The position numbers and the translations under genes were made by a program. 64,000 bases of DNA from a virus. Of this stretch, positions 10,849 through 60,856 are shown in pieces. How positions within the stretch are numbered: position 1 is the first letter of the stretch; every line of letters starts with the position of its first letter. A model generated the notes under the pieces. It ran no database searches and was not told the origin of the DNA. It was given only the letters and a program-made list of their open reading frames with translations. The stretch spans positions 5,476 to 69,475 of IMG/VR virus record IMGVR_UViG_3300023242_000006; one strand, 5' to 3'.

Positions 10849-11232
10849 TTATCGGCAACTGCTACCGACACGTTCAAAATGAAACTTTCCATCCCATAAA
10901 GTGTGCTTAATTGACCCCATATTAATTGCTACTTGCATTTTCGTTTTGCTTTTAAATAAGTATTCAAGTTTTTCATTCAGCATTTTATTGAGCTGAATTC
11001 TATAACCTTCTAAATCTGTATGGCACTTGTAATTATTGCAATCTTTACAACTTGGGTTAAGGTTTTCCAACTCATTACTACCTCCAAAAACTTGTGGTTT
11101 AATATGGTCAACATTCCAGCCTTTGAGTAAATCAACTCCACAATAAGCACACTTACCATTGCACTTATCAAAGACTATTACTCTAATTTTGGCTTTTGAG
11201 TTCATTTTATTTTGATTTGTGAAGAAGGGCAT
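10849..11232 (-). CDS. HNH endonuclease
   Basis: CAYCGVDL...WNVDHIKPQVFGGSNELENLNPSCKDCNNYK is the classic HNH/McrA-type motif. Confidence 0.75.
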   Translation of the reverse strand: MPFFTNQNKMNSKAKIRVIVFDKCNGKCAYCGVDLLKGWNVDHIKPQVFGGSNELENLNPSCKDCNNYKCHTDLEGYRIQLNKMLNEKLEYLFKSKTKMQVAINMGSIKHTLWDGKFHFERVGSSCR

Positions 11233-23518: not shown

Positions 23519-23769
23519 ATTTTGTGTATTTCATATTATTTCTTTTTTGCTTTTGTTTTTACAATCTCAACCATTTGTCTTTCAAATGTTGTAATTGCCG
23601 ATACAATCTTACGACAATCTTCGTCTGACAAAGATTCAAACCCACCAATCATGTCTTTGATACCTTTAGTGGACAAATTGACATAGATATTCTTCAAATA
23701 TTTAATCAGTACAATATTAATCTGATTAAATACTTAATTAATACAAAGGTACATATATATCAATTAAAT

Positions 23770-23905
23770 AAGACATGGGATATTGACCATATAGTTCCAT
23801 TATCATCAGCTAAAACAGAAAATATGTTATATAAACTATTTCATTTTTCTAACACACAACCTATGTGTAGTTATCATAACAGATTAATTAAAAAAATAAA
23901 ATCAT
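23770..23905 (+). pseudogene. C-terminal remnant of an HNH homing endonuclease
   Basis: The plus-strand frame reads WDIDHIVPLSSAKTEN..LFHFSNTQPMCSYHNRLIKK. It matches the C-termini of the HNH proteins at 42116 and 43842, and there is no N-terminal part. Confidence 0.55.
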
Positions 23906-31159: not shown

Positions 31160-31318
31160 ATGAAAAAAGACAAATTATCACCAAAAGAGAGAAAACAAAC
31201 CATAAGTATCCAGATTCCTAATGAATTAATAATTCATTTAGATGTAATTAATAATAAGAGTAAATTCTTCGAATGGTTATTAATTGAACATTTTAACACT
31301 TTAAAAAATGGAAAATAA
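31160..31318 (+). CDS. Ribbon-helix-helix-like small protein; overlaps the start of the downstream endonuclease gene
   Basis: ..KQTISIQIPNELIIHLD.. Its stop overlaps the ATG at 31308. Confidence 0.4.
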   Translation: MKKDKLSPKERKQTISIQIPNELIIHLDVINNKSKFFEWLLIEHFNTLKNGK

Positions 31319-32258
31319 AACTGAAAATTTTATTTCAAAAGCTAAATTAATACATGGTGATAAATATGATTATTCAAAAGTTAACTATATTAATAAAAGA
31401 ACTAACGTTAAAATAATTTGTTCTGAACATGGTGTTTTTGAACAATTAGTACATAACCATTTAAAAGGTAATGGTTGTATTAAATGTTCTGGAAAAGGTT
31501 TAACTAATGAAGAATTTATTAATAAATGTAATATAGTTCATAAAAATAAATTTAATTATTCATTGGTAGATTATAAAAATTGTTATGAAAAAATTAAAAT
31601 AATTTGCCCAATACATGATAAATTTGAACAAACACCAAGTTCTCATATTAGTGGTGTTGGTTGTTGGAAGTGTTTTAATGAGGATAGAACCACATCAAAT
31701 AATGAGTTCATATTAAAAGCCGAAAAAGTTCATAGCGATAAATATAATTATTCTAAAATTATTTATTTAAATAGTAAAGTTAATATCACAATTATTTGTC
31801 CAATACATGGTGACTTTGAACAAACACCTAATATGCATTTAAAAGGTTGTGGTTGCCGTAAATGTGGTTATATAACGGTGTCTAAAAAAGCAATTAATAA
31901 TTCACATAGTTTTTCACTATCAAGTTGGAAAAATATTATATCTAAAAACATAAAGGCTAAACCAATGTTATATATTATTAAATGTTATAATGATACTGAA
32001 GAATTCATTAAAATAGGTATAACAATAAACAACTTAAAAGGAAGATACCCTAGTAATAAACATATGCCTTATAAATATGATATAATATTAACACATGAAG
32101 CTGAACCAGAATTAGTGTTTAACATAGAAAAAGCGTTACACAGGTATTTTAAAAAAATTAAATACACCCCGACTATAAAATTCCATGGTATGGGTGAGTG
32201 TTATTATATAAAAGATAAACCAGAAATTTTAAACTATTGTAATAAACAATTAAATTAA
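31308..32258 (+). CDS. Putative homing endonuclease: three zinc-ribbon repeats plus a C-terminal T5orf172 (GIY-YIG-like) domain
   Basis: The repeat [10 protein letters not shown]..IICxxHGxFEQxPxxHLKGxGCxKC occurs three times. C-terminus [18 protein letters not shown].......YDIIL.HEA....[11 protein letters not shown]. It sits on the plus strand, opposite to all its neighbours. Confidence 0.6.
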
Positions 32259-39849: not shown

Positions 39850-41877
39850 CTATAATCGAATTATTGTTAAATTAATATTCTTTTTATCGATATCTACACT
39901 AGAAACTACAACGTGAACCATATCACCCAAACGAATCTTATCACCTGTGTTATACCCTTTAACACAATAGTTACTCATATCAACTTGATATGTATCACCA
40001 GAAATTTCAGATAACTTAATAAGTCCTTCGGCTTTGGAATCAATTAATTCAACGTATATTCCGTATTCAGTTAATGATGTGATTATACCTTTATTTACAG
40101 TACCTACTTTATCGTTTAAATAAACACAATACATGTATTTGATTGAGTCACGTTCAGCTTTCTGTGCTTTCTTTTCTCTTTCAGATAAATGAATACATCT
40201 AGTTTCTAACTTCTCTAACTTAGGTGTTGTTTTCTTGTTCTCATCCAAATACAAAGCTAACAATCTATGAACGATTACATCACTGTAACGTCTGATTGGA
40301 CTAGTAAAGTGTGAATAGTTAGCAAAACCTAAACCATAGTGACCAATGTTTTTTGTTGTATAGTTTGCTTTTTGCATTGTTCTGACAACTAAGTTATTAA
40401 CCATATCTTCTTCAGCAGTACCACGTATATCTATTAACAATTTGTTAAGGGATTTTGTTGTTTCTTCTGGGGTATCGATTTTAATATCGTAACCAAACTG
40501 AACAATAAAGTCTTTTAACGCTGCTAACTTTTCTTCGTTAGGTTTATCGTGTGCTCTATTCACGTTGGGTAAACCTTTCGTGTTGATGAACTGAGCTACG
40601 TGTTTATTCGCTAACAACATGTATTCTTCAATAAGTTTGTTTGAGTCTTTGGCAACCTTGAATATAATCCCAGTTGGTTTACTATTCTCATCCAATTTGA
40701 ATTTGACCTCTTGTTTATCAAATGATAAAGAACCTTTTATCAAACGAACTTTACGCATCTTTTTAGCTATCTTGTTCAACGCCAATACAGCATCGGCTAG
40801 TTTTCTAGCTGGGTCCCAACCTAATAACCTTAAACCAGTGTCTTCCAATAGTATTTTGGTTCTACCCTCAACATCGTCTTTAGGTAACCTACCCAATTCA
40901 ATGATAGCTTGCGCTTCTTCGTAGCTAAATCTGTGGTCAGAGTTAATTACGGTTCTACCGAACCATTCTTCTAACACATGACCATTGTGGTCTAACTTAA
41001 AGACAGCAGAAAAACATAATTTATCTTCATTAGGTCTTAACGAACATAACCCATTAGATAGGTTCTCTGGAAGCATAGGGACACATCTATCAACTAAGTA
41101 AACACTTGTACCTCTGGCAAAAGCTTCTTTATCTAATTCGCTATCTGGACGTAAGTAATGTGATACATCGGCAATATGAACGCCAACATACAACTCACCA
41201 TCAAGCCATTCCACGCTCAACGCATCGTCAAAGTCTTTGGCATCAGCTGGGTCAATTGTGAAGGTAAGTACATCACGCATATCTCTACGTTTATCAATTT
41301 CTTCTTGTGTAATTTCTGTAGAAATCAAATTGGCCTCCATAATTACATCTGTTTCGAAATAGTAAGGTAAACCATATTCTTCTAAAATACTATGTATCTC
41401 AGTTTCGTGTTCACCAGCATTACCTAGAATTCTGATAACTTCACCGTTAGGGTTTTTAGCACCTTCTTTCCATTCAGTTATACTTGCAATTACTTTTTGG
41501 CCTTCTGTAGCACCCATTGTCTTGTTTAATGGAATAAAAAAGTCAATTGGTAGTTTGTTGCTATCTGGAACAAAGAAAGCAAATTTAGCGCTTATTTGGA
41601 TTACACCAACAAACTCTGTTCTAAAACGCTCAACTACCTCAATTACTTTACCTTCAAGTGCACGACCTTGACCAACCATTACCTCAATTTTTACCTTATC
41701 CAAATGCAACGCATGGTTAGTGTTGGTTTTATGAACATAAATGTCTTTTGGTAAATTCTCACTCACCAAATATGCGGACCCACTTTGAGTCATTGAGATT
41801 CGCCCTTCTAGTATGTCACCAACATTAATTCTATTTATTTTTTTTTCTATCATTATTATTTTTTTACAAATATACAT
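39850..41877 (-). CDS. RNase R / RNase II family 3'-5' exoribonuclease
   Basis: 675 aa with N-terminal OB/cold-shock-like region, central RNB-like region and C-terminal S1-like domain (..GIITSLTEYGIYVEL..). The size is that of VacB/RNase R. Confidence 0.65.
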   Translation of the reverse strand: MYICKKIIMIEKKINRINVGDILEGRISMTQSGSAYLVSENLPKDIYVHKTNTNHALHLDKVKIEVMVGQGRALEGKVIEVVERFRTEFVGVIQISAKFAFFVPDSNKLPIDFFIPLNKTMGATEGQKVIASITEWKEGAKNPNGEVIRILGNAGEHETEIHSILEEYGLPYYFETDVIMEANLISTEITQEEIDKRRDMRDVLTFTIDPADAKDFDDALSVEWLDGELYVGVHIADVSHYLRPDSELDKEAFARGTSVYLVDRCVPMLPENLSNGLCSLRPNEDKLCFSAVFKLDHNGHVLEEWFGRTVINSDHRFSYEEAQAIIELGRLPKDDVEGRTKILLEDTGLRLLGWDPARKLADAVLALNKIAKKMRKVRLIKGSLSFDKQEVKFKLDENSKPTGIIFKVAKDSNKLIEEYMLLANKHVAQFINTKGLPNVNRAHDKPNEEKLAALKDFIVQFGYDIKIDTPEETTKSLNKLLIDIRGTAEEDMVNNLVVRTMQKANYTTKNIGHYGLGFANYSHFTSPIRRYSDVIVHRLLALYLDENKKTTPKLEKLETRCIHLSEREKKAQKAERDSIKYMYCVYLNDKVGTVNKGIITSLTEYGIYVELIDSKAEGLIKLSEISGDTYQVDMSNYCVKGYNTGDKIRLGDMVHVVVSSVDIDKKNINLTIIRL

Positions 41878-41964
41878 ATTAATATTTCAATAAACAATTT
41901 TTTTTTCATATAAATTTGTTTTTTTTTAAAAATTACTTATATTTATATATAGAAACTATATATT

Positions 41965-42126
41965 ATGAAAAAACAAGACAAACGAATTCTTCTAAATATT
42001 GATGGGGAATTAAAAACAGAATTTACAAAAAAATGTGATGATAACCATATGAAAATATCAGCCAGAATAAAATATTTAATTAGATTAGATGTAGAAAATA
42101 AAATAATTATTAAAAATGGAAACTAA
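41965..42126 (+). CDS. Ribbon-helix-helix (CopG/Arc-like) protein; overlaps the downstream HNH gene start by 11 nt
   Basis: ILLNIDGELKTEFTKKCDDNHMKISARIKYLI. Confidence 0.5.
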   Translation: MKKQDKRILLNIDGELKTEFTKKCDDNHMKISARIKYLIRLDVENKIIIKNGN

Positions 42127-42877
42127 AGTATGTAAAAAATGTTCAATAGATAAACCAATATCTAATTTTAGTGTAGCTAAAGATAATAGAGACGGTTTAA
42201 ATAATATATGTAAAAAATGTAAATGTGAATATAGTAAAAATTACACATTAAATAATTTTAATGAAATTTCAATAAAAAGAAAAAAATTTTATAATATTAA
42301 TAAAGATAGATTATTAAATCCAGAAACCTATGTTTTAATACATAATAAAATTTGTAGTGTTTGTAATGATGATAAAGCTATTTGTGAATTTAATAAAAAT
42401 AAAAAAAGTAATGATGGGTATAGAGCAGATTGTAAAATTTGTCAAGCTAAAAAAGGTAAAATATATCGGCTAAATAATGTTGATAAATTAAAACAATATC
42501 GTTTAGATAATAAAAATAATATAAACCAATATAGAAAAAATAAAAAACAAACTGATATTAATTATAAAATAACCTGTAATTTAAGAACTAGACTTTGGTC
42601 AGCTATTAAAAACGAATATAAATCTGGTTCAGCAGTAAGTGATTTAGGTTGTAGTATTGAATATTTTAAAAACTATATTGAATTAAAATTTGAAGATAAA
42701 ATGTCTTGGGATACTTGGGGTCGTGATACTTGGCATTTAGACCATGTAAAACCATTATCATCGTTTAATTTATCTAATAGGGAAGAATTTTTAATAGCTG
42801 TTAATTATAAAAACATTAAACCAATGTGGTGTAAAGATAATTTAAGTAAAGGTGGGGTGAAAAATGTTCATGCTTAG
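42116..42877 (+). CDS. HNH homing endonuclease
   Basis: Cys-rich N-terminus with C-terminal WHLDHVKPLSS...N...PMWCKDNLSKG. It lies on the plus strand amid minus-strand genes. Confidence 0.7.
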   Translation: METKVCKKCSIDKPISNFSVAKDNRDGLNNICKKCKCEYSKNYTLNNFNEISIKRKKFYNINKDRLLNPETYVLIHNKICSVCNDDKAICEFNKNKKSNDGYRADCKICQAKKGKIYRLNNVDKLKQYRLDNKNNINQYRKNKKQTDINYKITCNLRTRLWSAIKNEYKSGSAVSDLGCSIEYFKNYIELKFEDKMSWDTWGRDTWHLDHVKPLSSFNLSNREEFLIAVNYKNIKPMWCKDNLSKGGVKNVHA

Positions 42878-42919
42878 TCTTCCTTCTAATATATCGTTTA
42901 TTTTAATCATTCTTTTTTA

Positions 42920-43435
42920 TTAATCGACAATGAAATCATTAATCATCTCATTGTACTTTTCTTCGTTATTTTGTATTTTCCCGTAATACATTCTAGCCAT
43001 TGGCCCATACTGTTCTTGTTTATATTTTAGGTTTAATTGTTGTGTTTCATACCATGGGTAGATTTCCTTGTTGAAGTGGTAAAACAATCTACATGCGTAT
43101 CTGTCTGCAAAAATTTCTTCTTCAAAGATATGTGCTGTGAATTCATTAAAGTCTTCTATTGATAAATTAGCTAACATCAAGTCTTTACCCATTCTACTAA
43201 TACGTTTCATGTGTGCAGTTTCGTGAAGCAATATGAAGTAAACCAACTTGTCATGGTATCTATTAATCACCGACATATCCAACAATACACCATTAAGTGT
43301 AGCAATGGCCAAAGGTCCTCTAAGTTTTCTATCTTTATAAACAAATTCAGAACCCACCATAAACTGAATCAATTTGATGAAATCGTATTTTCCATCACGT
43401 TCAATTAGTTTATCTATGATTTTTTTGTCTATCAT
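42920..43435 (-). CDS. Putative HExxH metallopeptidase-like protein
   Basis: LHETAHM motif. Otherwise unassigned. Confidence 0.35.
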   Translation of the reverse strand: MIDKKIIDKLIERDGKYDFIKLIQFMVGSEFVYKDRKLRGPLAIATLNGVLLDMSVINRYHDKLVYFILLHETAHMKRISRMGKDLMLANLSIEDFNEFTAHIFEEEIFADRYACRLFYHFNKEIYPWYETQQLNLKYKQEQYGPMARMYYGKIQNNEEKYNEMINDFIVD

Positions 43436-43743
43436 TAATATAAGTCTTCAGAGAACAACACTATTTTGTGTTGTGTTATTTGCCCAGCCTCAAAAGCGAT
43501 TTGTGCCGCTTCTTCACGTTCAACAAATCTATCAGTATTGGTTAAGAACCCTTGTCTTTCAGTTCGCTTCAAAGCATGTGCATTTTCATCATATGGAAAA
43601 CCAACCATCTTAGCAAACATGCTAATACAGTTGTGGTGTCTTCTACCACAAATTACAAATCCAGACTCAATGTTTTTTGGGCCATGAGTCATCTCTTTAC
43701 CATCATCATAATGGTTTGCCGCACATAAAATATATTCTTTCAT
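43435..43743 (-). CDS. Hypothetical protein
   Basis: 102 aa. Promoter motif 3 nt upstream. Confidence 0.45.
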   Translation of the reverse strand: MKEYILCAANHYDDGKEMTHGPKNIESGFVICGRRHHNCISMFAKMVGFPYDENAHALKRTERQGFLTNTDRFVEREEAAQIAFEAGQITQHKIVLFSEDLY

Positions 43744-43841
43744 ATTACAAAGGTACTATTAATTTTTTATATATCCAAATAATAATGTTCAATTCTATCG
43801 TCTTTTTAAAAATATGTGGATATTTATAATAAATATAAATT

Positions 43842-44486
43842 ATGACACTAGAAGAAAAAAAAGAAGCTAAAAGACTTTACGATATGGAATATCGTAAAAA
43901 AAATAAATTAAGAATATCAAAACAACAAAAAGCTAGATATAATGCTTTAAGTGACGAAGAACGTTTAATTATTAATAAAAATAAATACGAAAAATTAGAT
44001 AAAGAAAAAAAGAAAAAAAAAGATAAAGAATATGCTATTAAAAATAAAGAAAAATTAAATTTAAAAAAGAAATTATGGGGGTTAGAAAACCCAGAAAAAC
44101 ATAAAAAAGCTAAATATGATTATGTAAAGAAAATGATGAGTACTGATATTCTTTATAAACTAAAGAGATATGTTTCCGCATCAATAAATCAAAGTTTAAA
44201 GAAAAAAGGTTTTTATAAAAAATATAGGTCGTATGAAATACTTGGGTGTTCTTATGAAGAATTTAAAACCCATATCGAATCTAAGTTTGAACAATGGATG
44301 AATTGGGAAAATCGTGGTAATTGGAATGGGGTACCCAAAGAAATTAATACTGCTTGGGATATTGACCATATACTACCACTTAGTTCAGCAATGTGTGAAG
44401 AAGACGTTATTAAACTTAATCACTACACCAATCTACAACCACTTTGTAGTTATACTAATAGAAATATAAAAAGAGACCAATATTAA
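43842..44486 (+). CDS. HNH homing endonuclease
   Basis: C-terminus WDIDHILPLSSA....N.QPLCSYTNRNIK. Basic N-terminal region. Plus strand. Confidence 0.7.
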   Translation: MTLEEKKEAKRLYDMEYRKKNKLRISKQQKARYNALSDEERLIINKNKYEKLDKEKKKKKDKEYAIKNKEKLNLKKKLWGLENPEKHKKAKYDYVKKMMSTDILYKLKRYVSASINQSLKKKGFYKKYRSYEILGCSYEEFKTHIESKFEQWMNWENRGNWNGVPKEINTAWDIDHILPLSSAMCEEDVIKLNHYTNLQPLCSYTNRNIKRDQY

Positions 44487-44496
44487 TCTCTTTTTA

Positions 44497-45021
44497 TTAA
44501 TGTCTATGTGCTGGAACTAAATTAATTTTAAAACTCGTTAATCGACCAGCTTTAACCAACTTATCACCAAATTCTTGAAATATTGGGATATGCTCCTTAC
44601 GGTCATCCCAAGCTTCTAATTCATTTACGTTAGCATATTTTTCTAACAATGATTCCATTGTTTTTATTTTAGCAACATCAGTACTACCACCTCTGTTGAA
44701 ATGGTACTCATCGAATATTAACCCTTTTGCGTCTAAGATTTTCTTTACCAAGTCACCTAGCTTCACTATTCGACCAGTCAACATAACCATACATGTGTTT
44801 GCGTTAACTTTCTCTTTCTTATATGCTGAAGTAACCATTGGCACCGTTGGCATATCAAAGATATCCATATCTAAGCTGAAAGGTTGTCCCCACCATCCAG
44901 GGAAAGGCCAAACCTTTCCAGTTTTTTCTTGGTATTCTTTTTTACCAAATTCTGGAAGAGGTGTCATTAATAAAGTGCCGTCAAAATCGAAAACAGCTAG
45001 TCTAGTTATTTTTTTTTCCAT
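44497..45021 (-). CDS. HAD-superfamily hydrolase
   Basis: Motif I VFDFDGTL. Confidence 0.6.
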   Translation of the reverse strand: MEKKITRLAVFDFDGTLLMTPLPEFGKKEYQEKTGKVWPFPGWWGQPFSLDMDIFDMPTVPMVTSAYKKEKVNANTCMVMLTGRIVKLGDLVKKILDAKGLIFDEYHFNRGGSTDVAKIKTMESLLEKYANVNELEAWDDRKEHIPIFQEFGDKLVKAGRLTSFKINLVPAHRH

Positions 45022-45025
45022 AATA

Positions 45026-45712
45026 TTAGTTTTTATATTTCCAAATGTATTTATAAGCGTGTTTTGTTTTATTTCTTAAATTTGCACTAATGTTTTTTCT
45101 AGACAACCCAAGTTCATTCTCAACATCTTGTGCACTTTTCCATTCTTTAATAAAATTGTTATTTAAATCGTATTGTAAAATAGGTTTTTTAATACTTTCA
45201 GCATTATTTTTAACCCATTCTTCAGATTTAATTATTTTTTTACCTCTAAGGTTATCAATAGCTTTCTGGTGAGCTAAAGTTTTACCAGTTTTTTTTCTAT
45301 TTTCAGAAATTAATTTTTTTGTTTCTTCTGAATGTGGGTTATAAACTCTATTTTTATTCGCTTCTCTTATTTTTTGTTTACGTTCCTCTGAATAAATAAC
45401 ACCAAAACCACCATCACCACCTAATGTTAAATTCATTCCGTTTTCATTATTACCATGAAAAGAATTATATTCATTTATATAATTGATTTCAATTTCATTT
45501 ATTTCATTTAACGAATGTTCACCTTCGTATATAACATCAAAACTATGACCGCTAAAACCATATTTTAATAATGAGTAATATATTAATGGTTGTTTTTTAC
45601 ATTTTAAACGTCTATAATAATCAAGTCTTAATTTTAAATTACTCGTTTTACCGATATAAATTCTACCAGATGGCGAAACTATTTTATAAATTTGACAAAT
45701 CTTTTTTTCCAT
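45026..45712 (-). CDS. GIY-YIG homing endonuclease (Seg/I-TevI-like) with NUMOD-type DNA-binding modules
   Basis: IYKIVSPSGRIYIGKTSNLKLRLDYY (GIY..YIG), repeated ..H.EETKKLISE.. and ..HQKAIDNLRG.., and a C-terminal HTH. Confidence 0.75.
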   Translation of the reverse strand: MEKKICQIYKIVSPSGRIYIGKTSNLKLRLDYYRRLKCKKQPLIYYSLLKYGFSGHSFDVIYEGEHSLNEINEIEINYINEYNSFHGNNENGMNLTLGGDGGFGVIYSEERKQKIREANKNRVYNPHSEETKKLISENRKKTGKTLAHQKAIDNLRGKKIIKSEEWVKNNAESIKKPILQYDLNNNFIKEWKSAQDVENELGLSRKNISANLRNKTKHAYKYIWKYKN

Positions 45713-45921
45713 AATATTGTTTTATTAATAAATATCACAATATTTCTCAAAATCAAATTTATTTTACAACCAACGTTCCATCAAAATCAAATACCGATAA
45801 TTTATTTATATTTTCCATAATTCTAATTTTCTGTTTCTAAACGTTTAATTACGTCTTTAATGTTAATAAATGATATTATTATACGTGATAGTATCGATAG
45901 CTGTTAATTTTGTCATGTGAT

Positions 45922-46308
45922 TTAAAGCTTTTTAATTAACACAACAAACACACTTAAAATAATCAAAACCATTGTCACTAACATCAACGTTGCTTTGTAA
46001 ACCCTTAGATAACGATTATATTTTAAACCATTATTTAAAAGAGCACCATATATCCTTTTTGTTGCTGAACCAATCAATACTTTTGTTATATTTGAATGTG
46101 CGTTTATTGTTTGTTTAAGTGCACCACTTATTCTTTTTGTTTCACATAACTTTTCCTTCTTTAATTTATCTATAGTTTCCAAGTTATTTTTTTCATAATC
46201 ATCTATGATTCTTAAAACATTTTCAATGTTTGGTTTGGGTTTTTGAATCTCATTATTTAGTTTTTCTGAAAGTTTCCCCCGTCTTGTTTTTAATATATCA
46301 AATTTCAT
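45922..46308 (-). CDS. Hypothetical protein with C-terminal TM
   Basis: 128 aa. Promoter motif at 46323. Confidence 0.45.
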   Translation of the reverse strand: MKFDILKTRRGKLSEKLNNEIQKPKPNIENVLRIIDDYEKNNLETIDKLKKEKLCETKRISGALKQTINAHSNITKVLIGSATKRIYGALLNNGLKYNRYLRVYKATLMLVTMVLIILSVFVVLIKKL

Positions 46309-46335
46309 TCTTTTTTTTCTTTTACAAAGGTAATC

Positions 46336-46800
46336 TTAATTTTTGAATATTCCAAATATTCGTTTATAAATATTTTGTAAAAATTTAATAACCTTTTCAA
46401 ATATATTTTCGTTTGAGTAAAAATAATCTATGTAATCCAACTGTGCCGTTGATGGTGACGTTGGTTGGATGCTAATTAAATCTTGTGAAACTGTAGACGC
46501 AGCAACGTTTTGAATTACTGGAAAAACAAAGTTATGAAATTCTTCACCCATTTTCCAGTAAAAATCTAAATCAATGTTGGCTTCGAAAATTCGTGCCCAT
46601 CCATATATGTAACCTTTGGCCTCAACTTTAGTAAGACCAAAAACGGTGATAATATCTTTTACCAGCTTATCACCATTGAATGGAATTGAGATTCTTAGGT
46701 CACTATACCTTTGATAGATACCTTGATTTCCAACATCACTAGTTTTTATATAATAATTTTCTGATAAGTAAACATATATAAGTTTTTTCATATACAACAT
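46336..46800 (-). CDS. Hypothetical protein
   Basis: ORF of 154 aa. Confidence 0.45.
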   Translation of the reverse strand: MLYMKKLIYVYLSENYYIKTSDVGNQGIYQRYSDLRISIPFNGDKLVKDIITVFGLTKVEAKGYIYGWARIFEANIDLDFYWKMGEEFHNFVFPVIQNVAASTVSQDLISIQPTSPSTAQLDYIDYFYSNENIFEKVIKFLQNIYKRIFGIFKN

Positions 46801-46827
46801 TACTTATAATGATAACACTAGTAAAGG

Positions 46828-47322
46828 TTATTTAGATGGTTTTGGTTTAATCGTGGCGAACATTTTTTTACCTTCTAACTTAGGCATAGCCTCTGGGCTA
46901 CCATATTCTTCAACTGCAAGTATCGTCTTAAGAATTTGTTCTTGACCAATGTCAATATGTTGCATTTGTCGACCTCTAAATTGAAGACTAACTTTAATCC
47001 TATGGCCTTTTTGTAAAAACTCAACCATGTGTTTGATTCTGTAGTTCAAATCATTCTCAGATGTGTTAGGTCCTAGTTTGATTTCTTTCATGTCAAGTGT
47101 TTTGTTCTTAGGTTTTTTACTTTGTTCGTATATAAACTTTTCATAATTCATTACACGACAAACAGGTGGTTGAGCTTTTTCGTTAATCATAACCAAATCA
47201 AGTTCTTTTGATTTGGCTAATTTAATGGCATCAGCTAATGCCATTATTCCCTCATCAATAATACGCAATTCACTTGCTGTTATCTCTGAATTAAGTTTAT
47301 GTTCTATTATTTTTTTACGCAT
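46828..47322 (-). CDS. infC: Translation initiation factor IF-3
   Basis: ELRIIDEGIMALADAIKLAKSKELDLVMINEKAQPPVCRVMNYEKFIYEQSKK...LQFRGRQMQH aligns along the full length with bacterial IF-3. Confidence 0.8.
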   Translation of the reverse strand: MRKKIIEHKLNSEITASELRIIDEGIMALADAIKLAKSKELDLVMINEKAQPPVCRVMNYEKFIYEQSKKPKNKTLDMKEIKLGPNTSENDLNYRIKHMVEFLQKGHRIKVSLQFRGRQMQHIDIGQEQILKTILAVEEYGSPEAMPKLEGKKMFATIKPKPSK

Positions 47323-47707
47323 TAATTGCTTTGATTAATTCTTCAAACGATTCAACCTGTTTAACATCGTACTTTTCACATACAATATCAACATTGCCTT
47401 TCCTCCAGAAACCTTCTGGACATAAAACGATTAGTTTACCACCTTTGGCGTGTAACCCCAATTCCAACAATGAGATTGGTGACTTCGTATTAGGGTCGAA
47501 GTACATCAAAATGATGTCTGCCATGTCTAACGCTTTCAATTCCCAAGATACTTGTTCATTGAATTGTTTATTCTCAATTTTTTGCTCCCATGAGCTGTCC
47601 CAATCATCTCTTCTTGGGTTTAAAAACGTGTAACCTTTATAAGATAACTCGTCTACTATTCTTTTTTGCCAATTCTCAGCTTTACCCATTTCGATTGACC
47701 CAGCCAA
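47315..47707 (-). CDS. Nucleoside 2-deoxyribosyltransferase-like protein
   Basis: About 130 aa with the conserved LELG.H..GK..I...PEG Rossmann-like core typical of the family. Confidence 0.5.
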   Translation of the reverse strand: MAGSIEMGKAENWQKRIVDELSYKGYTFLNPRRDDWDSSWEQKIENKQFNEQVSWELKALDMADIILMYFDPNTKSPISLLELGLHAKGGKLIVLCPEGFWRKGNVDIVCEKYDVKQVESFEELIKAINA

Positions 47708-48250
47708 AAAAAATACATTTATTGTTTTTAGCGAATGTCAAATCATTTGGTGCTTGTATTTCTTTTGATTTTTCCATGAAATATTTTAATTCAAGTTGAT
47801 AGTGTAATCGTTAAAACCTACATCATCATTATTATCTTCGTCATCACTAGAATCGTCTGTGTTAGTAATAGTAATAGATTCAATTACTCCTTCAAGTTCG
47901 TCTAATACGGTCACTTCAATTGCACCAGTTACATCATCGTATTCTATGTCGATGATATATTCCCCTAAATCTACCTTTTTTCTTATTAACATTTAACCAT
48001 TCATAGTATTTGGTGTTATTTTACCAGCAATAATATCTGGTATTACTTTTTCTTGGTAATCGTTCAACAATTTTTCTCGTGTAACTGACCAACCAATTGG
48101 TGGTAATGTATAATCTTCAAAGTATGTATAGCGAATCATACCAGCAATGTTGGGACCAACCGACTTAATTTCACCATCTGGCATTACTAACTCAAATTTT
48201 CCGTCAACTATGTGTCTTATTTCGATATACATACTTATTATATTTTTGTT

Positions 48251-49423
48251 TTACCCACCAGAGATACAATCATTTTCACCATCATCGTCATTTATTTTAT
48301 CATTGTAAGTTATTTTATCAATGATATTTTTAGTAAAGTTAGCAACACCTTTTTTAGGTTTATTAACCACAGCACTACCATAACCATCGTAAGCATAAGC
48401 ATAGTTAACTATGTCAGCATCTTCTATTTTAATGAATAGTGGTTCTTCAAAACCTAATTTTTCACCTTTTTTATCTTCAAAAGGTTCAATCTCAATTGTT
48501 GAGAAATTAATAACACGACTAATAGTACCTATTGATTGACCATCAATCTCAAACCTATAACCTTGGTTATTCTCACTGTACATAGGTCTAGGGTATACGT
48601 TAACACCGCTAGCTATTTCAACCATCTCACCATTTTTATCTCTCATTGTAACATTGTGTTTACCTTTAATTTTTTTAACATTAAAGATAGATTCAAATAC
48701 CGATGGAGTTTCTTCATGAATATTAACCTCGCTGATGATTGCTTTAACAATATCAACAGTAATCGTTTCCAAATTAGAAATGAAATTGACGCATTCTTTT
48801 TTAAATTGTGTGTGAATCAATAAATCATTTACTATTTCTTCGACAACTTCTGGCTTCAAATCCTCGAATTTTTTAAGGTAACGGATACGTCCTGGTCTTT
48901 GTATAAGATTTTTTTCTATATACAACTCATTTGTAGTCAATAAGAATACTCTTCTAAACTCAGAATTTAACGCACCATCCATGATTGTTAACATCGTAGA
49001 TGAATCACCAAATATCTTCTCATACTCATCTATAAATATAGTTATATTTTGAGAAATTGAGTTTAAGAATGTATGGATTCCTTGAATGTTTGATTCTACT
49101 AGGATAGTTGGTTGGTTTAATTGTGTTGCGATAACTTTCGAAGAAACAGTTTTACCAGTACCTTTTAAACCATTTAACAAAATACCCAAATTATTATTCG
49201 TCGCACTATATGTTTTGATGATTCGGTTAATCAAATCACTCTCCAAACCATATAATTTGTAGTCGAATGTGAAACCATCACTATGTTTAACCAAATAAAA
49301 ACGTCCATATTCGTCTACACCTACTGTATAGATAGCGTTTTCTAATTTTTCAAATTCTTGCGATGGATGAGTAAGGTAAAGTTTTTTACCATCAGCATTC
49401 CATACTTTTTTTACGTCTCCCAT
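48251..49423 (-). CDS. P-loop ATPase (Walker A GLKGTGKT, Walker B IFIDEYE)
   Basis: Motifs read directly. Confidence 0.6.
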   Translation of the reverse strand: MGDVKKVWNADGKKLYLTHPSQEFEKLENAIYTVGVDEYGRFYLVKHSDGFTFDYKLYGLESDLINRIIKTYSATNNNLGILLNGLKGTGKTVSSKVIATQLNQPTILVESNIQGIHTFLNSISQNITIFIDEYEKIFGDSSTMLTIMDGALNSEFRRVFLLTTNELYIEKNLIQRPGRIRYLKKFEDLKPEVVEEIVNDLLIHTQFKKECVNFISNLETITVDIVKAIISEVNIHEETPSVFESIFNVKKIKGKHNVTMRDKNGEMVEIASGVNVYPRPMYSENNQGYRFEIDGQSIGTISRVINFSTIEIEPFEDKKGEKLGFEEPLFIKIEDADIVNYAYAYDGYGSAVVNKPKKGVANFTKNIIDKITYNDKINDDDGENDCISGG

Positions 49424-49569
49424 TATATTTATTTTAAATGTTACTAATTAACTCTAACTTTTCTTTTCTAGTTAGTTGTTTTATTCTATATTCTTCTTTA
49501 CTGGCTAAACTTCTATTTTCAACCTCAAAGGAATATCGTAGAATAACGGGTAATCTTGTCATGGTATAT

Positions 49570-50457
49570 TTAGCACAATTTGTCACTAATTTTTTCATTA
49601 TATCTAATAATAATTAAATTAATATTTTTGCTTTTACAATAATCTTTTTTAATTTTATCGTTAATTTGTTGTTGTTTAAATTTTATTATTCCACCAAAAT
49701 AATTAACTGGTTTGTAATGTTGAATACCGTTGAATTCAATACATATATTATAATCTGGTAAATAAAAATCAAATGGTAATAAATTAATATTTTTACAATC
49801 AGGAAATTTATATTGTCGTAAATATTTTATTTTTTTATTTTCTAATATATCTTTAATTTCAATTTCACCTTTTGATTCATTACATAAAGGACAACCATGT
49901 TTTCTGTTGATATGATGGTCTGGAGATTGTTCAAACTCACCATGCTCTGGACATATTATTTTAACCTTAATTTTATTATTTCTATAATTAACTTTTGAAT
50001 AATCATATTTATTATTATGTATTTTATCACCCTCTTCTATAAATGTTTCAATATTTTTATTATTATAAGTACAGTAAGTACAACCATGACCCTTTAAATG
50101 ATTACTTGGTGTTTGCTTGAATTCACCGTGGATTGAACAAATTATCTTTATTTCATTATGTGAACTGATATAATTAATATTTTTATAATCGAATTTATTA
50201 CCATGTATTTTAATCGCATCAAAAATAAATTTCTCGTTATTTTTAGTTAATTTATTTTTCATCTCTTCTCTTCCACATAATAAACAGCCTTTACCTTGTA
50301 TATGTGATTTTGGAGTCTGTTTAAATTCTCCATGTATCGGACAAATTATAACAACTTTTTGTGTTTGATTAATATAATCGACTAAACTATATTCATATTT
50401 ATTTGAATGTTTATTATTAGCTTTAATTTTAAAATTCTCTGTATTTGATGTACTCAT
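49570..50457 (-). CDS. Putative homing endonuclease: three zinc-ribbon repeats plus a C-terminal PD-(D/E)XK (Vsr/DUF559-like) nuclease domain
   Basis: Same KYDYS..IICPIHGEF.Q.P..H..G.GC..C repeats as 31308..32258. C-terminus FDFYLPDYNICIEFNGIQHY. Confidence 0.6.
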   Translation of the reverse strand: MSTSNTENFKIKANNKHSNKYEYSLVDYINQTQKVVIICPIHGEFKQTPKSHIQGKGCLLCGREEMKNKLTKNNEKFIFDAIKIHGNKFDYKNINYISSHNEIKIICSIHGEFKQTPSNHLKGHGCTYCTYNNKNIETFIEEGDKIHNNKYDYSKVNYRNNKIKVKIICPEHGEFEQSPDHHINRKHGCPLCNESKGEIEIKDILENKKIKYLRQYKFPDCKNINLLPFDFYLPDYNICIEFNGIQHYKPVNYFGGIIKFKQQQINDKIKKDYCKSKNINLIIIRYNEKISDKLC

Positions 50458-50523
50458 AATTATTCTTTATTATAAATATATCAAAATATTATAAAATACT
50501 GTTTTGTTCTGAATTTACTAAAA

Positions 50524-50778
50524 CTAAACGTCCATTTCAAATTTATTTATTAATAATAATTTATCATTTCTTTTTAACTTTTTAATTTTAATTTCTAACT
50601 TACTGGCTTCTGACCTATTTTGAACTCCCCAGAATGCTTTTAAAATAACTGGTAAACGATTTTTACAATATTTTGCACCCTTGCCTTTATTATGTGTTGT
50701 GATTCGTTTATTTACATCAGTTGTTATACCAGTGTAAACAGTACCATCGTTGCATTCCACCAAATAAACATACCACAT
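50524..50778 (-). CDS. GIY-YIG nuclease (small YhbQ-like)
   Basis: MWYVYLVECNDGTVYTGITTDVNKRITTHNKGKGAKY. Confidence 0.7.
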   Translation of the reverse strand: MWYVYLVECNDGTVYTGITTDVNKRITTHNKGKGAKYCKNRLPVILKAFWGVQNRSEASKLEIKIKKLKRNDKLLLINKFEMDV

Positions 50779-50996
50779 TACAAATCAAAACTAAGACTAC
50801 CACCTGTGTCATTAAAAAAATTGTTCGGTATTAACCCATGTTCAGCTAGACAAGAAATAACTATTTGTTTCATCATATATGAATTACCCGTAATCAAGGT
50901 TGCGTTAGAAGTGTTATTTTGAATACATAACCAAATAAACTCATCAACTGTCTTAACAACATCTTCGTGTTTTACACCATGCAAATCTAAAGTCAT
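50778..50996 (-). CDS. Smr domain protein
   Basis: LDLHGVKHEDVVKTVDEFI.....ATLITGNS. Confidence 0.6.
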   Translation of the reverse strand: MTLDLHGVKHEDVVKTVDEFIWLCIQNNTSNATLITGNSYMMKQIVISCLAEHGLIPNNFFNDTGGSLSFDL

Positions 50997-51469
50997 TTAT
51001 TTATTGTTTCTAAAATTTTATCTATACAAGCAACTTGTGTTTCATGAAGTAAGTCTCTAGCTTCATCTAAAGTAACCCATTTATAACCATCCATTTCTGG
51101 AAAACCACCTCGTTCAGCTGGAACGTTAGAATTACATTTAAGTTCTTGCTCACCCCAATTAAATTTTGAGTCCCTTTTTTCTAAGTACAAAAAAGGATAA
51201 ACAATTTTTTTCTTATGTCCGTAATTAACACCTAGCATTGGAAAAATATCAAAATCAGTAGAACCAGATAAATCTAGGTTTGTTTCCTCATACGTTTCAC
51301 GCAAGGCTCCTTCTAAGAATGTTTCATTTTCTTCAACCTTACCCTTTGGAATACTCCAAAAATTAGGTTTATGGTTTGTCGGGTGTGCTATTAATAATTG
51401 TTTATTTTTTCTTACAATAAACAAACCAGCAGCTATCGTTTTCATCATTTTAAATGATTTTAGTACCAA
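50993..51469 (-). CDS. NUDIX hydrolase
   Basis: Nudix box GKVEENETFLEGALRETYEETNL. Confidence 0.75.
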   Translation of the reverse strand: MVLKSFKMMKTIAAGLFIVRKNKQLLIAHPTNHKPNFWSIPKGKVEENETFLEGALRETYEETNLDLSGSTDFDIFPMLGVNYGHKKKIVYPFLYLEKRDSKFNWGEQELKCNSNVPAERGGFPEMDGYKWVTLDEARDLLHETQVACIDKILETINK

Positions 51470-51782: not shown

Positions 51783-51940
51783 CTATGTAGAATTGTTCAG
51801 TAATTATTTTAATTTGTTTCTCGTTAGATTCAATAGCTCTATTAATTAAATCATCATTGATAGAACCTAACATAATTTTAAGTAACCTATTTGATTCTTG
51901 TAATGCTTCTTTAAAAGCTTTTAAATGCGATATCGATACT

Positions 51941-52372: not shown

Positions 52373-52417
52373 ACTACAAAGGTACTAAGATTATTTTAAA
52401 TACGCAAGTAAAAATAA

Positions 52418-52648
52418 ATTAAAATTACCTTTTGATTTCTATTTACCAGATTTTAATATTTGTATTGAATTTAACGGGATTCAACATTATAAAGTAGTTG
52501 AACATTTTGGTGGGGTTCAAGGGTTTAATTCTAGGAAAATTAATGATAAAATAAAAAGGGAATATTGTTTACTAAACAATATTCCACTTATTATTATTAA
52601 ATATAATGACAATGTTGGTGATAAATTAACTTATTCAAAAGTAGTATA
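52418..52648 (+). pseudogene. C-terminal remnant of a PD-(D/E)XK homing endonuclease domain
   Basis: The plus frame reads LPFDFYLPDFNICIEFNGIQHYKVVEHFGGVQGF..IIIKYND. It matches the C-terminus of 49570..50457 and has no N-terminal part. Confidence 0.55.
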
Positions 52649-54244: not shown

Positions 54245-54550
54245 TATTTTTTAAAATTTTATTTATTTTATTTATTTTAGTTAATAAATTATCTGTTTTT
54301 TCATTGTATTTTATTATTATTAACTTTATTTTATTATTGTCACAGTAATCTTTTTTTATTTTATCTTTCTTCTGTTGTTCTTTTAAACCACTTGTACCAC
54401 CAAATAACATAAAAAATACCAGCTATTACACTTGCGATGACAATATACTTAAAAACCACCACAAACATAAAGACTCCAAAAAAAACGCCTTGAATAACGA
54501 ATACCGTTAACAGACTAATCAATAGGTATAATGAAAATTTTGCCTTCATT

Positions 54551-54910: not shown

Positions 54911-54914
54911 TCGG

Positions 54915-56297: not shown

Positions 56298-56474
56298 TTT
56301 GTAATATTAAAAGTTAAATTTTTATAAATTTTAATTTGGTTGCTAAGATAATGTCTAACATGACCACCATCACATAAAACCACACACCAGATATCGTTTT
56401 CAAATGTTCCACCATTTGAAACATAAATAGCATAACCCTCTTTGTCTTCTTCAACAATCACTGGTATTGGGTTT

Positions 56475-59937: not shown

Positions 59938-60856
59938 CGTGATGTTCGTATAGGTTCGTTAATCCCTATACCGTTCTCTTATGAACTGCTACATTTTTCA
60001 ATGTAGACCAGACTATATCAACATCTTATAAATAAGATGGTATCCATTTCCACTCACTTGAGTGTACGTCTTTCGACTAGTCGTTGAACTTTTTTAATCT
60101 TTATTTTGATAAGTATAAATTCTAGTTATGTGAGAAATAAACTCTTCTGTCGTCATGGTACTTTTTGAATTATTACAAAACTTACAACAACTAACACAAT
60201 TATCAACAGAATAACCAATAGAGTTATTTACTCTATCAACACCATTAACTCTAAATGGAGAAGTATCCATTTTTTTTCGTTTAGTGCCTTTCCATCCCAT
60301 ATGTGGTTCTAAACCACAATAATGACAATTACCATCTAGTAATTTATAACATTCCTCAGTAGTTAACTTAAAAAAGTAATTTCTTCTTGTTGCTGCTTTT
60401 AAATAATTTCTAAAAATTTCATGTTTAAGACCTTCAAAATTTGGTTTTGATTGCCTTTCAACTATTTTTTCTTTCATTAAACAACCACATGATGCGTGTC
60501 TACCGTTTTTTAAAAGATTACTTCTAGCTATTGTGGTATTACCACAATCACATTTACAAAGGTAACCTTTTTCTCTACTGTGATGCTCAATAACTGTTAA
60601 CCTATTGAACTTTTTACCTATCATTTTCTCTTTTGCTTTCATATGTTACAACATTAATTATAATAATAAATATATAACTATTTCACAAAAGACATTAAAA
60701 ATTAAACTTAGCTGCTGATTTTCCAATCTCTTACCTTTTCAAACATTCACGATTGATGTTACCATCTGCGTTGTAGTGTTAAGAGCTCTAAGGACGTTCC
60801 AGCAATTAGAATACTTTCGATATGGTGTCACCACCATAAAGGGCTATATTAATCTA
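59938..60856 (-). mobile_element. Group I-like intron (about 919 nt) interrupting nadV, carrying an HNH endonuclease ORF
   Basis: On the RNA strand exon 1 ends ..GUAUGGU and the intron ends ..CAUCACG (terminal G) before ACCCGAUU. Splicing restores VWY-PITV, which is conserved in NAMPT. Confidence 0.65.
60094..60642 (-). CDS. Intron-encoded HNH endonuclease
   Basis: C..C pairs and C-terminal GVDRVNNSIGYSVDNCVSCCKFCNNSK. Confidence 0.7.
   Translation of the reverse strand: MKAKEKMIGKKFNRLTVIEHHSREKGYLCKCDCGNTTIARSNLLKNGRHASCGCLMKEKIVERQSKPNFEGLKHEIFRNYLKAATRRNYFFKLTTEECYKLLDGNCHYCGLEPHMGWKGTKRKKMDTSPFRVNGVDRVNNSIGYSVDNCVSCCKFCNNSKSTMTTEEFISHITRIYTYQNKD

Follow-up and report, generated by a model that had tools for sequence, protein, structure and literature searches.

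This article concerns the homing-endonuclease genes (HEGs) in a stretch of viral DNA of 64,000 nucleotides (nt), hereafter the window, which corresponds to positions 5,476 to 69,475 of IMG/VR record IMGVR_UViG_3300023242_000006. A preliminary description of the same DNA listed eight nuclease open reading frames (ORFs), all of which we located at its coordinates. Seven of these we regard as HEGs or, for HNH_10849, as a possible HEG; the eighth, a YhbQ-like gene at 50524, is treated together with its neighbor below. The seven are as follows.

10849..11232, minus strand: HNH_10849, a compact HNH protein of 127 amino acids (aa); Pfam HNH E 1.6e-9, 38.2 bits (cut-off 21.4), and PHROG 2118, 7e-32

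31308..32258, plus strand: ZnT5_31308, three zinc-ribbon repeats followed by a T5orf172 nuclease (GIY-YIG superfamily)

42116..42877, plus strand: HNH_42116, two CxxC zinc-finger units followed by a ββα-Me/HNH nuclease; inside the RNase R coding sequence

43842..44486, plus strand: HNH_43842, a helical lysine-rich N-terminal domain followed by a candidate HNH motif; intergenic

45026..45712, minus strand: GIY_45026, I-TevI/Seg-like, GIY-YIG plus NUMOD3 plus NUMOD1; inside the HAD gene

49570..50457, minus strand: ZnPD_49570, three DUF723/DUF4379 zinc ribbons (Pfam) followed by a predicted Vsr-like PD-(D/E)XK nuclease of the EDxHD type

60094..60642, minus strand: HNH_60094, matching PHROG 1035 (1.6e-18) and PHROG 374 (8e-15); between two halves of a putative intron core

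Together these seven ORFs make up 7.6% of the 64 kb, or about one per 9 kb, and between 41965 and 50457 four ORFs fill 35% of the DNA. Phage T4, for comparison, has a genome of ~169 kb. Its 15 HEGs represent 11% of its coding potential, and it has been called an oddity among the T-even phages (PMC2988022). Set against T4, the density in the window is therefore high yet not unprecedented: the hotspot of HEGs from several families, with decayed copies, that had been proposed for this DNA is borne out, while the word “exceptional” goes too far for what is T4-level density. Judging from the sequences, HEGs of at least five families have very probably invaded this region of early and auxiliary-metabolism genes, and have done so repeatedly.

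Relatives of the window were recovered using the AAA-ATPase and RNase R genes, and they have a common gene order (51941, 51450, Nudix, Smr, UPF0213-GIY, AAA, ..., IF3, 46336, 45922, HAD (44497), 43435, 42920, RNase R). One close relative, R (IMGVR_UViG_3300037294_000399; loci L073, L075, and L121), has 87-99% nucleotide identity. The preliminary description had proposed a presence/absence comparison, and in it HNH_42116, HNH_43842, GIY_45026, ZnPD_49570, and a ZnPD remnant are all missing from relatives in which the flanking genes abut. Related cassettes occupy the same sites in other lineages, and GC content is 22-25% in the cassettes and in the diverged half of the YhbQ-like gene, compared with 31-37% in neighboring or backbone genes. 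Taken together, the empty sites, the recurring cassettes, and their low GC content form the pattern expected of homing. Proteins identical to those of the window are also encoded on independent metagenome contigs (ENA, JGI, and Logan), and these independent assemblies with matching arrangements argue against assembly artefacts.

ZnPD_49570 is found within the YhbQ-like gene, together with two versions of the end of that gene.

50524..50778, minus strand: hybrid UPF0213 (YhbQ-like) GIY-YIG gene; resident part ~50668-50778, presumably imported and diverged 3' half 50524-~50667

49434..49577, minus strand: resident 3' half of the UPF0213 gene, 46 codons, displaced downstream of ZnPD_49570; blastn E 1e-36

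The gene at 50524 had been counted as an HEG. Its 84-aa product has a GIY-YIG domain (Pfam E 1e-16) and matches the UPF0213 structures 1ZG2 and 1YWL (E 2e-18). It consists of the catalytic domain alone, with no DNA-binding domain, it lacks the features of GIY-YIG HEGs of the I-TevI/Seg type, and a search of the PHROGs matched no family. In many relatives the gene follows Smr, and it has diverged in step with its neighbors. On these features it would be the target of ZnPD_49570 and not an HEG, and the earlier assignment did not hold.

ZnPD_49570 is inserted at codon 37 of this gene, with the diverged 3' half upstream and the resident 3' half downstream. The 80-aa gene of the relatives maps to the window in two pieces, codons 1-37 to 50669-50748 and the 3' half to 49441-49576. 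Nucleotide identity to L023, L024, and L026 is 87-90% over the stub, compared with 56-61% over the 3' half of the intact copy; the identity of the hybrid gene to L026 falls at ~50680, and GC content is 34% in its resident part versus 24% in the part that we take as imported. The ZnPD ORF runs into its target, which supplies the TAA stop codon (GTGCTAAATA), and at the left junction there is a similar motif of 11 nt (GGTGCAAAATAT). In L026 the GIY-YIG gene abuts the AAA gene without ZnPD, the empty-site allele of this type being found around GGTGCTAAATA and GGTAAAGGTGCTAAATACACC. R, too, is without ZnPD_49570.

The closest homologues of ZnPD_49570 (72% identity) adjoin or lie inside the UPF0213 gene in L064-L071. 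L064-L066 have the 84-aa allele followed by ZnPD and no stub, a hybrid state, and in L067-L071 the gene is split by ZnPD into 32 N-terminal codons and a 46-codon stub, with the right junction as in the window. The arrangement in the window could have arisen by homologous repair on one side only, with an L064-type genome as donor and the break joined through microhomology, or by recombination within ZnPD between the split-gene state and the hybrid state that has no stub. The idea that the ZnPD gene of the split-gene lineage (L068) lies in an intron was rejected, the stop codon being in the target itself and core elements being absent; a search for an intron core around ZnPD likewise revealed none. 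As a separate observation, R has lost much of what the window has at 48406-50995 (L075 2037-2472 in R), namely Smr, the UPF0213 gene, any ZnPD, and nearly all of the AAA-ATPase gene. What is left of the last is a 33-codon 3' fragment inside a new 110-aa ORF; the AAA-ATPase is otherwise widely kept among the relatives.

A comparable arrangement is present in the HAD phosphatase gene, where GIY_45026 resides.

44965..45021, minus strand: diverged replacement of the HAD 5' end, 19 codons, belonging to the HAD_SAK_1 phosphatase gene 44497-45021

45759..45818, minus strand: resident HAD 5' remnant (MENINKLSVFDFDGTLVVK*), 94% to L026 over 50 nt, E 8e-17

45826..45903, minus strand: 3' remnant of an ABC-membrane-like gene, 26 codons; tblastn 85% over 26 aa, E 2e-7

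GIY_45026 reaches 23.1 bits for Pfam GIY-YIG (cut-off 22.6) and 23.0 for NUMOD1 (cut-off 22.8), with NUMOD3 just under its cut-off; it also matches TIGR01453, “group I intron endonuclease” (66.7 bits, cut-off 56.05), and PHROG 314 (2e-25). It thus has the N-terminal GIY-YIG domain joined to NUMOD-type modules that the YhbQ-like protein lacks. It is inserted after HAD codon 17, at the stretch coding for FDFDGTL, which we take to be the catalytic DxDGT motif of HAD phosphatases. When mapped to the window, the contiguous L026 gene for HAD falls into two pieces, one at 45769-45818 and the other, from codon 19 on, at 44937-44964; the codons between these two mapped pieces have no nucleotide-level match to L026. 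In L026 the flanks abut without GIY_45026, the empty-site allele being found around AAATTATCGGTATTTGATTTTGATGG and marked also by ATGGAAAAAATAATTAAATTATCGGTATTTGACTTTGATGG; R keeps GIY_45026 at 100% amino-acid identity. A homologue (60%) stands at the HAD 5' end of L089 with a similar stub and leader sequence, and in both the window and L089 the HEG-linked copy of HAD reads AVFD, compared with SVFD in the stub.

The ABC-membrane-like gene beside the stub is intact in R and L025 and is not an HEG, so its remnant indicates that ordinary deletions leave 3' stubs as well. Several independent assemblies (contig ends in L001-L004 and L020-L022) stop just upstream of GIY_45026, at ~45700-45920, or at ZnPD, and R has additional genes at ~45700-45920, these being the ABC-membrane gene and a GIY-YIG HEG. 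The assembly breaks and the extra genes of R suggest strain heterogeneity at those sites within the sampled populations.

In the RNase R gene the insertion is a cassette of two genes, HNH_42116 and a small gene for a putative ribbon-helix-helix (RHH) protein.

41785..41877, minus strand: diverged replacement of the RNase R 5' end, ~22-30 codons plus upstream region, which presumably came with the cassette of RHH gene and HNH_42116

41965..42126, plus strand: putative RHH (Arc-like) gene, 53 aa, overlapping the start of HNH_42116 by 11 nt; PHROG 582 “Arc-like repressor,” E 3e-4

42866..42910, minus strand: resident RNase R 5' remnant (MIKINDILEGRLSMN), the first 15 codons, beside gene 42920

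The cassette sits after RNase R codon 15. The remnant is, by eye, identical to R over 45 nt; with L026 it shares 87% identity over 47 nt (E 7e-8), and the empty-site allele has its 5' end around CTAAGCATGAACGCTAGTGGGTCC. The start codon of RNase R in the window is M1 at 41877 or M9 at 41853, and nucleotide-level homology to R and L026 restarts at 41784 (...SGSAYLV). The GC content of the cassette is 21.9% compared with 35% for RNase R. HNH_42116 matches PHROG 1035 (endonuclease VII/HNH, 2e-21) and also PHROG 5558; Pfam, searched at E 0.01, gives no match for HNH_42116, HNH_43842, or HNH_60094, so that PHROGs were needed. HNH_42116 is absent from R (flanks 94-99% identical), L025, L026, and L027; counting the sites of all cassettes, the relatives in which flanking genes abut at an empty site are L026, L025, L023, and L027/28. 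An RHH gene with an HNH gene is found upstream of RNase R in L078, L079, and L088. In distant relatives (L006/L033 and L122) RNase R is split elsewhere, between its RNB and S1 domains, by insertion of a zinc-ribbon HEG, and in L122 an RHH-like ORF lies ahead of that HEG within the split gene.

At both HAD and RNase R the native stubs match L026 and R, whereas the functional ends have no nucleotide-level match, which is the pattern of a gene hybrid. The genes at 49570, 45026, and 42116, which might be taken as free-standing, in fact sit in coding sequence and carry replacement gene ends.

HNH_60094, too, might be taken as free-standing. Its surroundings point to a different setting, a group I intron within the gene for NAMPT.

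59938..60856, minus strand: candidate group I intron, 919 nt, splitting NAMPT (exon 1 60857-61394, exon 2 58916-59937)

Genes 60849 and 58916 are parts of NAMPT (human residues 8-157 and 190-481, respectively). The N-terminal part ends ...LLQVW-LD* and the C-terminal frame resumes at ...PITVATL, with junctions at ...GTATGGT/TAGATT... and ...CATCACG/ACCCGATT... (slashes mark the boundaries). Joining the exons gives LLQVW-Y-PITVATL, as in the gene of R (LLQVWYPITVATL), which is uninterrupted there, and restores the reading frame exactly. Exon 1 ends in U and the intron in G, and folding by hand allows a P1 helix of 5 bp in which a U·G pair falls at the splice site. The Rfam group I model RF00028 aligns to the 3' half at 44.4 bits (E 1.3e-10, model positions 126-253) and to the 5' half at 13.5 bits (positions 60-138), in each case below the gathering score of 50, and the halves are in the right order around the ORF. 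TAATTGCTGG, AATCAGCAGC, GTTCAACGACTAG, and GATATAGTC resemble the consensus P, Q, R, and S elements of group I introns. The core is seen only when the two halves flanking the ORF are scanned separately: the Rfam scan of the whole window at the gathering threshold returned tRNAs and no intron, and a scan of 2.7 kb at E <= 1 returned no intron either. A search of the window for further introns by their R, S, and Q core elements found just this one. On this sequence evidence HNH_60094 appears to be intron-encoded, and the intron would be removed by splicing.

In R, a homologous intron lies 36 codons further upstream and encodes an HNH protein of only 33% identity; because the two introns interrupt NAMPT at different sites, each genome serves as the empty site for the other. 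No self-consistent splice junction was found for the intron of R. The P/Q/R/S core, the U at the 5' splice site, the terminal G, and the HNH ORF inside are shared with known HNH-carrying group I introns of phages, being typical of those of the T4 td type and the I-HmuI type. What differs here is the host gene; in a full-text search of a paper collection three papers contained all the terms, and no title or abstract opening describes an HNH-carrying phage intron in NAMPT. For annotation purposes, NAMPT appears here to be one intron-split gene and not two genes. It forms part of an island of NAD+/ADP-ribose genes at 55267-62468 (SIR2, HAD, Macro, NADAR, NAMPT, and a bifunctional NMNAT-Nudix) that resembles an NAD+ reconstitution (counter-defence) pathway. 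HEGs concentrate at this island in both the window and R.

HNH_43842, by contrast with the in-gene insertions, is truly intergenic and always found at the HAD 3' end. It is convergent with that end and stands where L026 has a terminator hairpin; it is absent from L025, L026, and L027 (the L026 site being a 74-bp spacer), shows 98% amino-acid identity in R, and has homologues of 55-67% identity at the HAD 3' end in L079, L122, and L125. Neither Pfam nor PHROG offers a family for the full-length ORF. It is homologous to the C-terminal half of HNH_42116 (E 1e-11), its isolated C-terminus gives a weak Pfam HNH match (E 0.004, under the cut-off), and D175, H176, N197, and N206 are invariant in 40 homologues. 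The family comprises >2,000 largely unannotated proteins, a few of them with PF01844. For the structural model the nearest folds are HNH DNases of the colicin/pyocin kind, at E ~1 only, and the family profile has no match among PDB sequences.

The nuclease domain of ZnPD_49570 likewise has no Pfam model above threshold, the best being DUF559 at E 0.09, and phmmer against PDB sequences yielded a spurious phosphomutase match only. In Foldseek its model (pLDDT 88.5) matches I-Bth0305I (3R3P; probability 1.0, E 0.029, target TM 0.59) and Vsr (1CW0/1VSR; probability 0.96), with no match at E < 0.001. E198, D230, E241, H247, and D267 are invariant in 30 homologues. Because I-Bth0305I and Vsr are the closest folds and E198, D230, H247, and D267 are invariant, we read the domain as closest in fold to Vsr-like PD-(D/E)XK nucleases of the EDxHD type. 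The N-terminal NUMOD or helix-turn-helix (HTH) domain and the intron or intein location of EDxHD HEGs are not seen in ZnPD. Its family has >7,700 homologues and is almost unannotated.

ZnT5_31308 matches T5orf172 at 28.2 bits (cut-off 20) and PHROG 681 at 3e-57, has a GC content of 23%, and combines T5orf172 with repeated zinc fingers of the CapR/DUF723 type, as zinc-finger-T5orf172 HEGs do. A tRNA-Ile gene lies 139 nt downstream of it. The preliminary description had noticed that ZnT5_31308 and ZnPD_49570 share a zinc-ribbon module and had taken this to suggest domain swapping. The modules are indeed homologous (40% identity over 240 aa, E 4e-44, by tblastn against the window), but the modularity is family-wide and already published, and there is no sign of a recent swap in this genome. 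A recent exchange of nuclease domains here was rejected, for the arrays are only 40-45% identical overall (single repeats up to 57-60%), about as close as they are to homologues from unrelated jumbo phages. The shared module would instead reflect an old modularity of the family. HNH_10849 has a backbone-like GC content of 33% and was not found in the compared part of R; a PHROG scan of its neighbors gave nothing informative. Its best NCBIfam match is the HNH region of the RNA-guided nuclease IscB (NF040563, E 1.3e-12, far under the family cut-off), a similarity at the domain level only.

Three decayed copies were identified by tblastn against the window with composition-based statistics.

23761..23895, plus strand: HNH_43842-type remnant, the last 45 codons; 58% over 45 aa to residues 167-211, E 4.7e-13

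52425..52628, plus strand: ZnPD remnant, the last 68 codons; 68% over 68 aa to ZnPD_49570 residues 227-294, E 1.7e-25

54282..54404, minus strand: second ZnPD remnant, 41 codons, just upstream of the start of the A1 gene; 59% over 41 aa, E 0.04

The alignments asked for in the preliminary description are thus significant for the two remnants it had reported, although the start it gave for the second (52418, in 52418-52648) is one base out of frame. The third HEG remnant, the three target-gene remnants, and the group I intron had escaped it. The stub at 23761-23895 is kept in R. That at 52425-52628 is convergent with the A1 gene; its counterpart in R is a longer, frameshifted pseudogene (L075 32-620), and in L023 the site is empty, with A1 abutting 51941. 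The stub at 54282 is a few codons longer in R, where the overlapping stretch has 76% nucleotide identity to ZnPD_49570 (E 5e-18), and L081 has an intact ZnPD homologue directly upstream of A1 at this very site. In both ZnPD stubs the homology ends after “DKL,” as in ZnPD_49570 itself, and this common endpoint marks the 3' end of the ZnPD element. The bias toward C-terminal stubs probably arises, we infer, from deletions bounded by the start region or by the 3' end of the adjacent gene.

Small leader ORFs, three in the window and 42-53 aa in length, precede two of the cassettes. One is the gene at 41965 already listed; the others are:

30955-31083 and 31160-31318, plus strand: two putative RHH genes upstream of ZnT5_31308, the second overlapping the ZnT5 start by 11 nt

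Copies 87% identical to the 41965 gene occur at the corresponding site in L078 and L079. ZnT5_31308 and both of its leader ORFs are 100% identical in R, and these two ORFs are 44% identical to two small ORFs ahead of a ZnPD gene in R (E 3e-8 and 7e-7). Their own family matches are weak (CcdA/DUF6364 only, E 0.015-0.15). In R, leader homologues also lie ahead of a TnpB gene and of a GIY-YIG HEG. L122 has one before a zinc-ribbon HEG, and this leader ORF has a weak RepB-RCR_reg match. The weak family matches (Arc-like, CcdA, and RepB-RCR_reg) all hint at a ribbon-helix-helix fold. Arc (RHH) proteins of IS605 repress the element promoter, and Arc genes have been noted beside HEGs (bioRxiv 10.64898/2026.09.24.754181); by this analogy, the likeliest role of the leader genes is probably repression of their own cassette. 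The two TnpB-like genes of R (388 and 391 aa; L075 13290-14587 and L121 17275-18450) are missing from the window, and one of them comes after a C-terminal RHH-like extension that shares homology with the leader ORFs of the HEGs.

These observations fit together in the following way. Each nuclease would cut the HEG-free allele of a co-infecting relative, and recombination repair would then copy the HEG and adjacent DNA into the break. In the three in-gene cassettes the host gene would be kept whole by the diverged copy of the displaced gene end that arrives with the nuclease gene, an end that is presumably resistant to cleavage. The small RHH genes whose reading frames overlap the nuclease start codons in two cassettes would hold expression in check, and old HEG copies would decay by deletion into 3' stubs such as those at 23761, 52425, and 54282. 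R has two further hybrids, a GIY-YIG HEG inside the 45922 homologue and an RHH-RHH-ZnPD cassette at the NAMPT 3' end, the latter having ~100 codons replaced by diverged sequence, while the native stub lies downstream. This makes five examples in two close relatives, three in the window and two in R. It is conceivable, though we put it forward only tentatively and regard it as somewhat doubtful, that such “self-healing” insertion is a regular homing strategy, in which an HEG travels with a recoded, resistant gene end, often behind an RHH repressor gene.

Other explanations deserve consideration. All eight nucleases might be free-standing intergenic HEGs, and the remnants just their dead copies. 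Nuclease domains do occur in all eight, and the absence of the GIY-YIG gene from about half of the more distant relatives can be read as mobility, yet we hold this to be improbable: GIY_50524 is a catalytic domain of the bacterial UPF0213 family with no PHROG family, it always follows Smr, diverges with its neighbors, and is itself interrupted by ZnPD, while HNH_60094 appears intron-encoded and GIY_45026 and HNH_42116 lie within coding sequence. We would give as little weight to the notion that the duplicated gene ends arose by local tandem duplication and divergence and did not come in with the nuclease gene from a diverged donor. Homology and adjacency of the two copies agree with this notion, and a like alternative has been raised for some mitochondrial hybrids (PMC3630166). 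An unexpressed stub would be expected to degrade, however, and it is instead the functional part that has diverged (56-61% vs 87-90%), with the GC content of the cassette (24% vs 34%); moreover, the 84-aa allele is linked to ZnPD in L064-66, and the Ser-to-Ala variant of HAD is HEG-linked in both the window and L089.

That the remnant similarities are chance matches in AT-rich, low-complexity DNA is extremely unlikely. The window does have 31% GC, and the match at 54282-54404, taken alone, has an E of 0.04, but with composition-based statistics the values of 4.7e-13, 1.7e-25, and 8e-11 refute chance for 23761, 52425, and 49434, and relatives have longer versions or intact genes at the corresponding sites. 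Less easily dismissed, although still rather unlikely, and compatible with homing, is that the nucleases are kept for the benefit of the phage, through exclusion of relatives, spread of auxiliary or anti-defence genes, or degradation of host DNA. In its favor, HEGs cluster around NAMPT and NMNAT-Nudix in the window and R, and HEGs have been linked to marker exclusion (PMC2988022), to boundaries of genetic exchange (PMC10448857), and to amplification of anti-defence loci (PMC13096335). Several copies are decayed, however, HEG content differs strongly between close relatives, and some lineages have the GIY-YIG gene split by ZnPD with no intact copy, all of which fits parasitic turnover. Most likely, then, repeated homing of HEGs, acting through cleavage of sites inferred from the sequences, produced what is seen here, including the gene hybrids and the intron in NAMPT.

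Several points weigh against this conclusion. The HNH assignment of HNH_43842 draws on weak profile and fold evidence, the fold match of ZnPD has an E of ~0.03 with the whole multidomain model as the query, and the putative RHH assignment of the leader genes is below threshold. About half of the more distant relatives have no UPF0213 gene, so that “backbone” describes it only within a subclade. The left crossover in this gene can be placed only approximately, and the three ZnPD states (split gene; hybrid with remnant; hybrid without remnant) are seen in different lineages and can be ordered in more than one way. Finally, HEG counts in the relatives cover homologues of the window's own HEGs only.

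Every type of element found here is already known. Similar to the seg, mob, and I-Tev elements of T4 (PMC2988022), there are many GIY-YIG and HNH HEGs at about 1 per 10 kb, with free-standing copies between conserved genes, intron-encoded copies, co-conversion of flanks, and content that varies between relatives. The differences lie in the Bacteroidota phage background and in the additional zinc-ribbon/T5orf172 and zinc-ribbon/Vsr-like families. Also, in cases such as Aeh1 nrdA/mobE the HEG leaves a split gene (PMC2988022), whereas the three coding insertions of the window appear healed by an imported end. ZnT5_31308 has the architecture of the zinc-finger (CapR/DUF723)-T5orf172 HEGs of ICP1 and T5-like phages, described as “beads on a string,” which are reported to shuffle their domains and repeats and to lie at boundaries of genetic exchange (PMC10448857). 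Here, in another host and lineage, the zinc-ribbon array is joined to a Vsr-like nuclease too, and in R an RHH-RHH leader is joined to such a nuclease as well. Among EDxHD HEGs (I-Bth0305I and Hef), I-Bth0305I has catalytic residues D196, N208, H213, and D222 (PMC3239194); the fold of ZnPD is closest to this enzyme (3R3P) and to Vsr, but ZnPD would bind DNA through its three predicted zinc ribbons, with no NUMOD/HTH, and it lies outside any intron or intein.

A parallel to the in-gene insertions is provided by the mobile-ORF gene hybrids of fungal mitochondria (Allomyces atp6; Glomus atp6, atp9, cox2, and nad3), which also combine a core, a foreign C-terminal part, an endonuclease ORF, and a native stub (PMC3630166). 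In these hybrids the stub is 91-98% and the inserted part 64-81% identical to relatives, compared with 87-90% and 56-61% at the UPF0213 gene. The present examples differ in being from a phage, in their nuclease families, and in that two of the three exchange the 5' end of the gene, start codon and upstream region included, and not the 3' end. New are the lineage, the apparent intron in NAMPT, an evident HEG that combines zinc ribbons with a Vsr-like nuclease, and the finding that seemingly healed in-gene insertions recur in a phage.

If the self-healing strategy is real, HEGs of unrelated nuclease families that have neither intron nor intein, whether Vsr-like, GIY-YIG, or HNH, could colonize the most conserved coding motifs without inactivating genes. 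The hybrids seen here already indicate that the gene-hybrid trick of fungal mitochondria operates in phages as well. The window and its relatives, an uncultured Bacteroidota phage group, offer an unusually complete natural series of HEG states at common loci, from empty sites, fresh insertions, and hybrids to split genes, frameshifted copies, and stubs. Homing sites and resistant alleles can be predicted from it for three nuclease families, one being the zinc-ribbon/Vsr-like family. Those who annotate similar genomes should be cautious, as short “hypothetical” ORFs beside HEGs are often stubs of the neighboring gene.

As to the phage itself, the minus strand of the window carries nearly all genes. 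The window encodes a T5-type A1 “DNA transfer” protein with 43-45% identity to those of Cellulophaga phi4:1 and phi17:2, Maribacter Panino, and Flavobacterium phages, and a 1052-aa ORF (25137-28295, minus strand) with DUF4874, DUF4832, and a type IX secretion sorting domain. Because of these A1 relatives and the sorting domain, the host appears from sequence to be a member of the Bacteroidota, and the source phage a large (>100 kb), AT-rich phage of that group with a T5-type A1 gene. The 1052-aa ORF is missing in R. A megablast of 40000-55000 against the GenBank phage collection gave no nucleotide match, and relatives there are recognized at the protein level only (Cellulophaga phi4:1 and phi17:2 and Maribacter Panino).

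Some features stand apart from the HEGs. In the more distant relatives, where the regions L006/L033 8561-10807 and 12429-18618 and L122 1-2882 include the split RNase R described above, the AAA-ATPase gene is also broken by ~1.2 kb. At 1-2780, on the minus strand, the window has a tandem array of ~11-13 small paralogous ORFs of 55-95 aa, which start with M-(K/I)-(L/I)-GKSIKDKV, continue with 10-18 copies of a 4-aa unit x-S-V-x, and end in ...SIPKIK; Tandem Repeats Finder (TRF) gives a 12-nt period with ~180 copies over 1-2140 and higher-order periods of 167 and 175 nt. An intergenic element recurs at 6640-6690, 13733-13794, and 21154-21215, and also at 43737-43773, 52367-52387, and 57811-57832. 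It has a hairpin, GACACTA...TAGTGTC, followed on the gene strand by GTACCTTTGTA right ahead of start codons, and is probably a terminator-promoter unit. A sigma-70 promoter scan was set aside as not meaningful for a Bacteroidota phage; TACCTTTG of the element fits the Bacteroidota -7 promoter motif TAnnTTTG. Finally, the minus strand has two tRNA-like genes, 98-99 nt long, at 35127-35225 and 35504-35602 (Rfam tRNA 43.5 and 41.8 bits). ARAGORN reports the second as “tRNA-???” with a 4-nt anticodon, gccc, and both may be intron-containing or unusual tRNAs.

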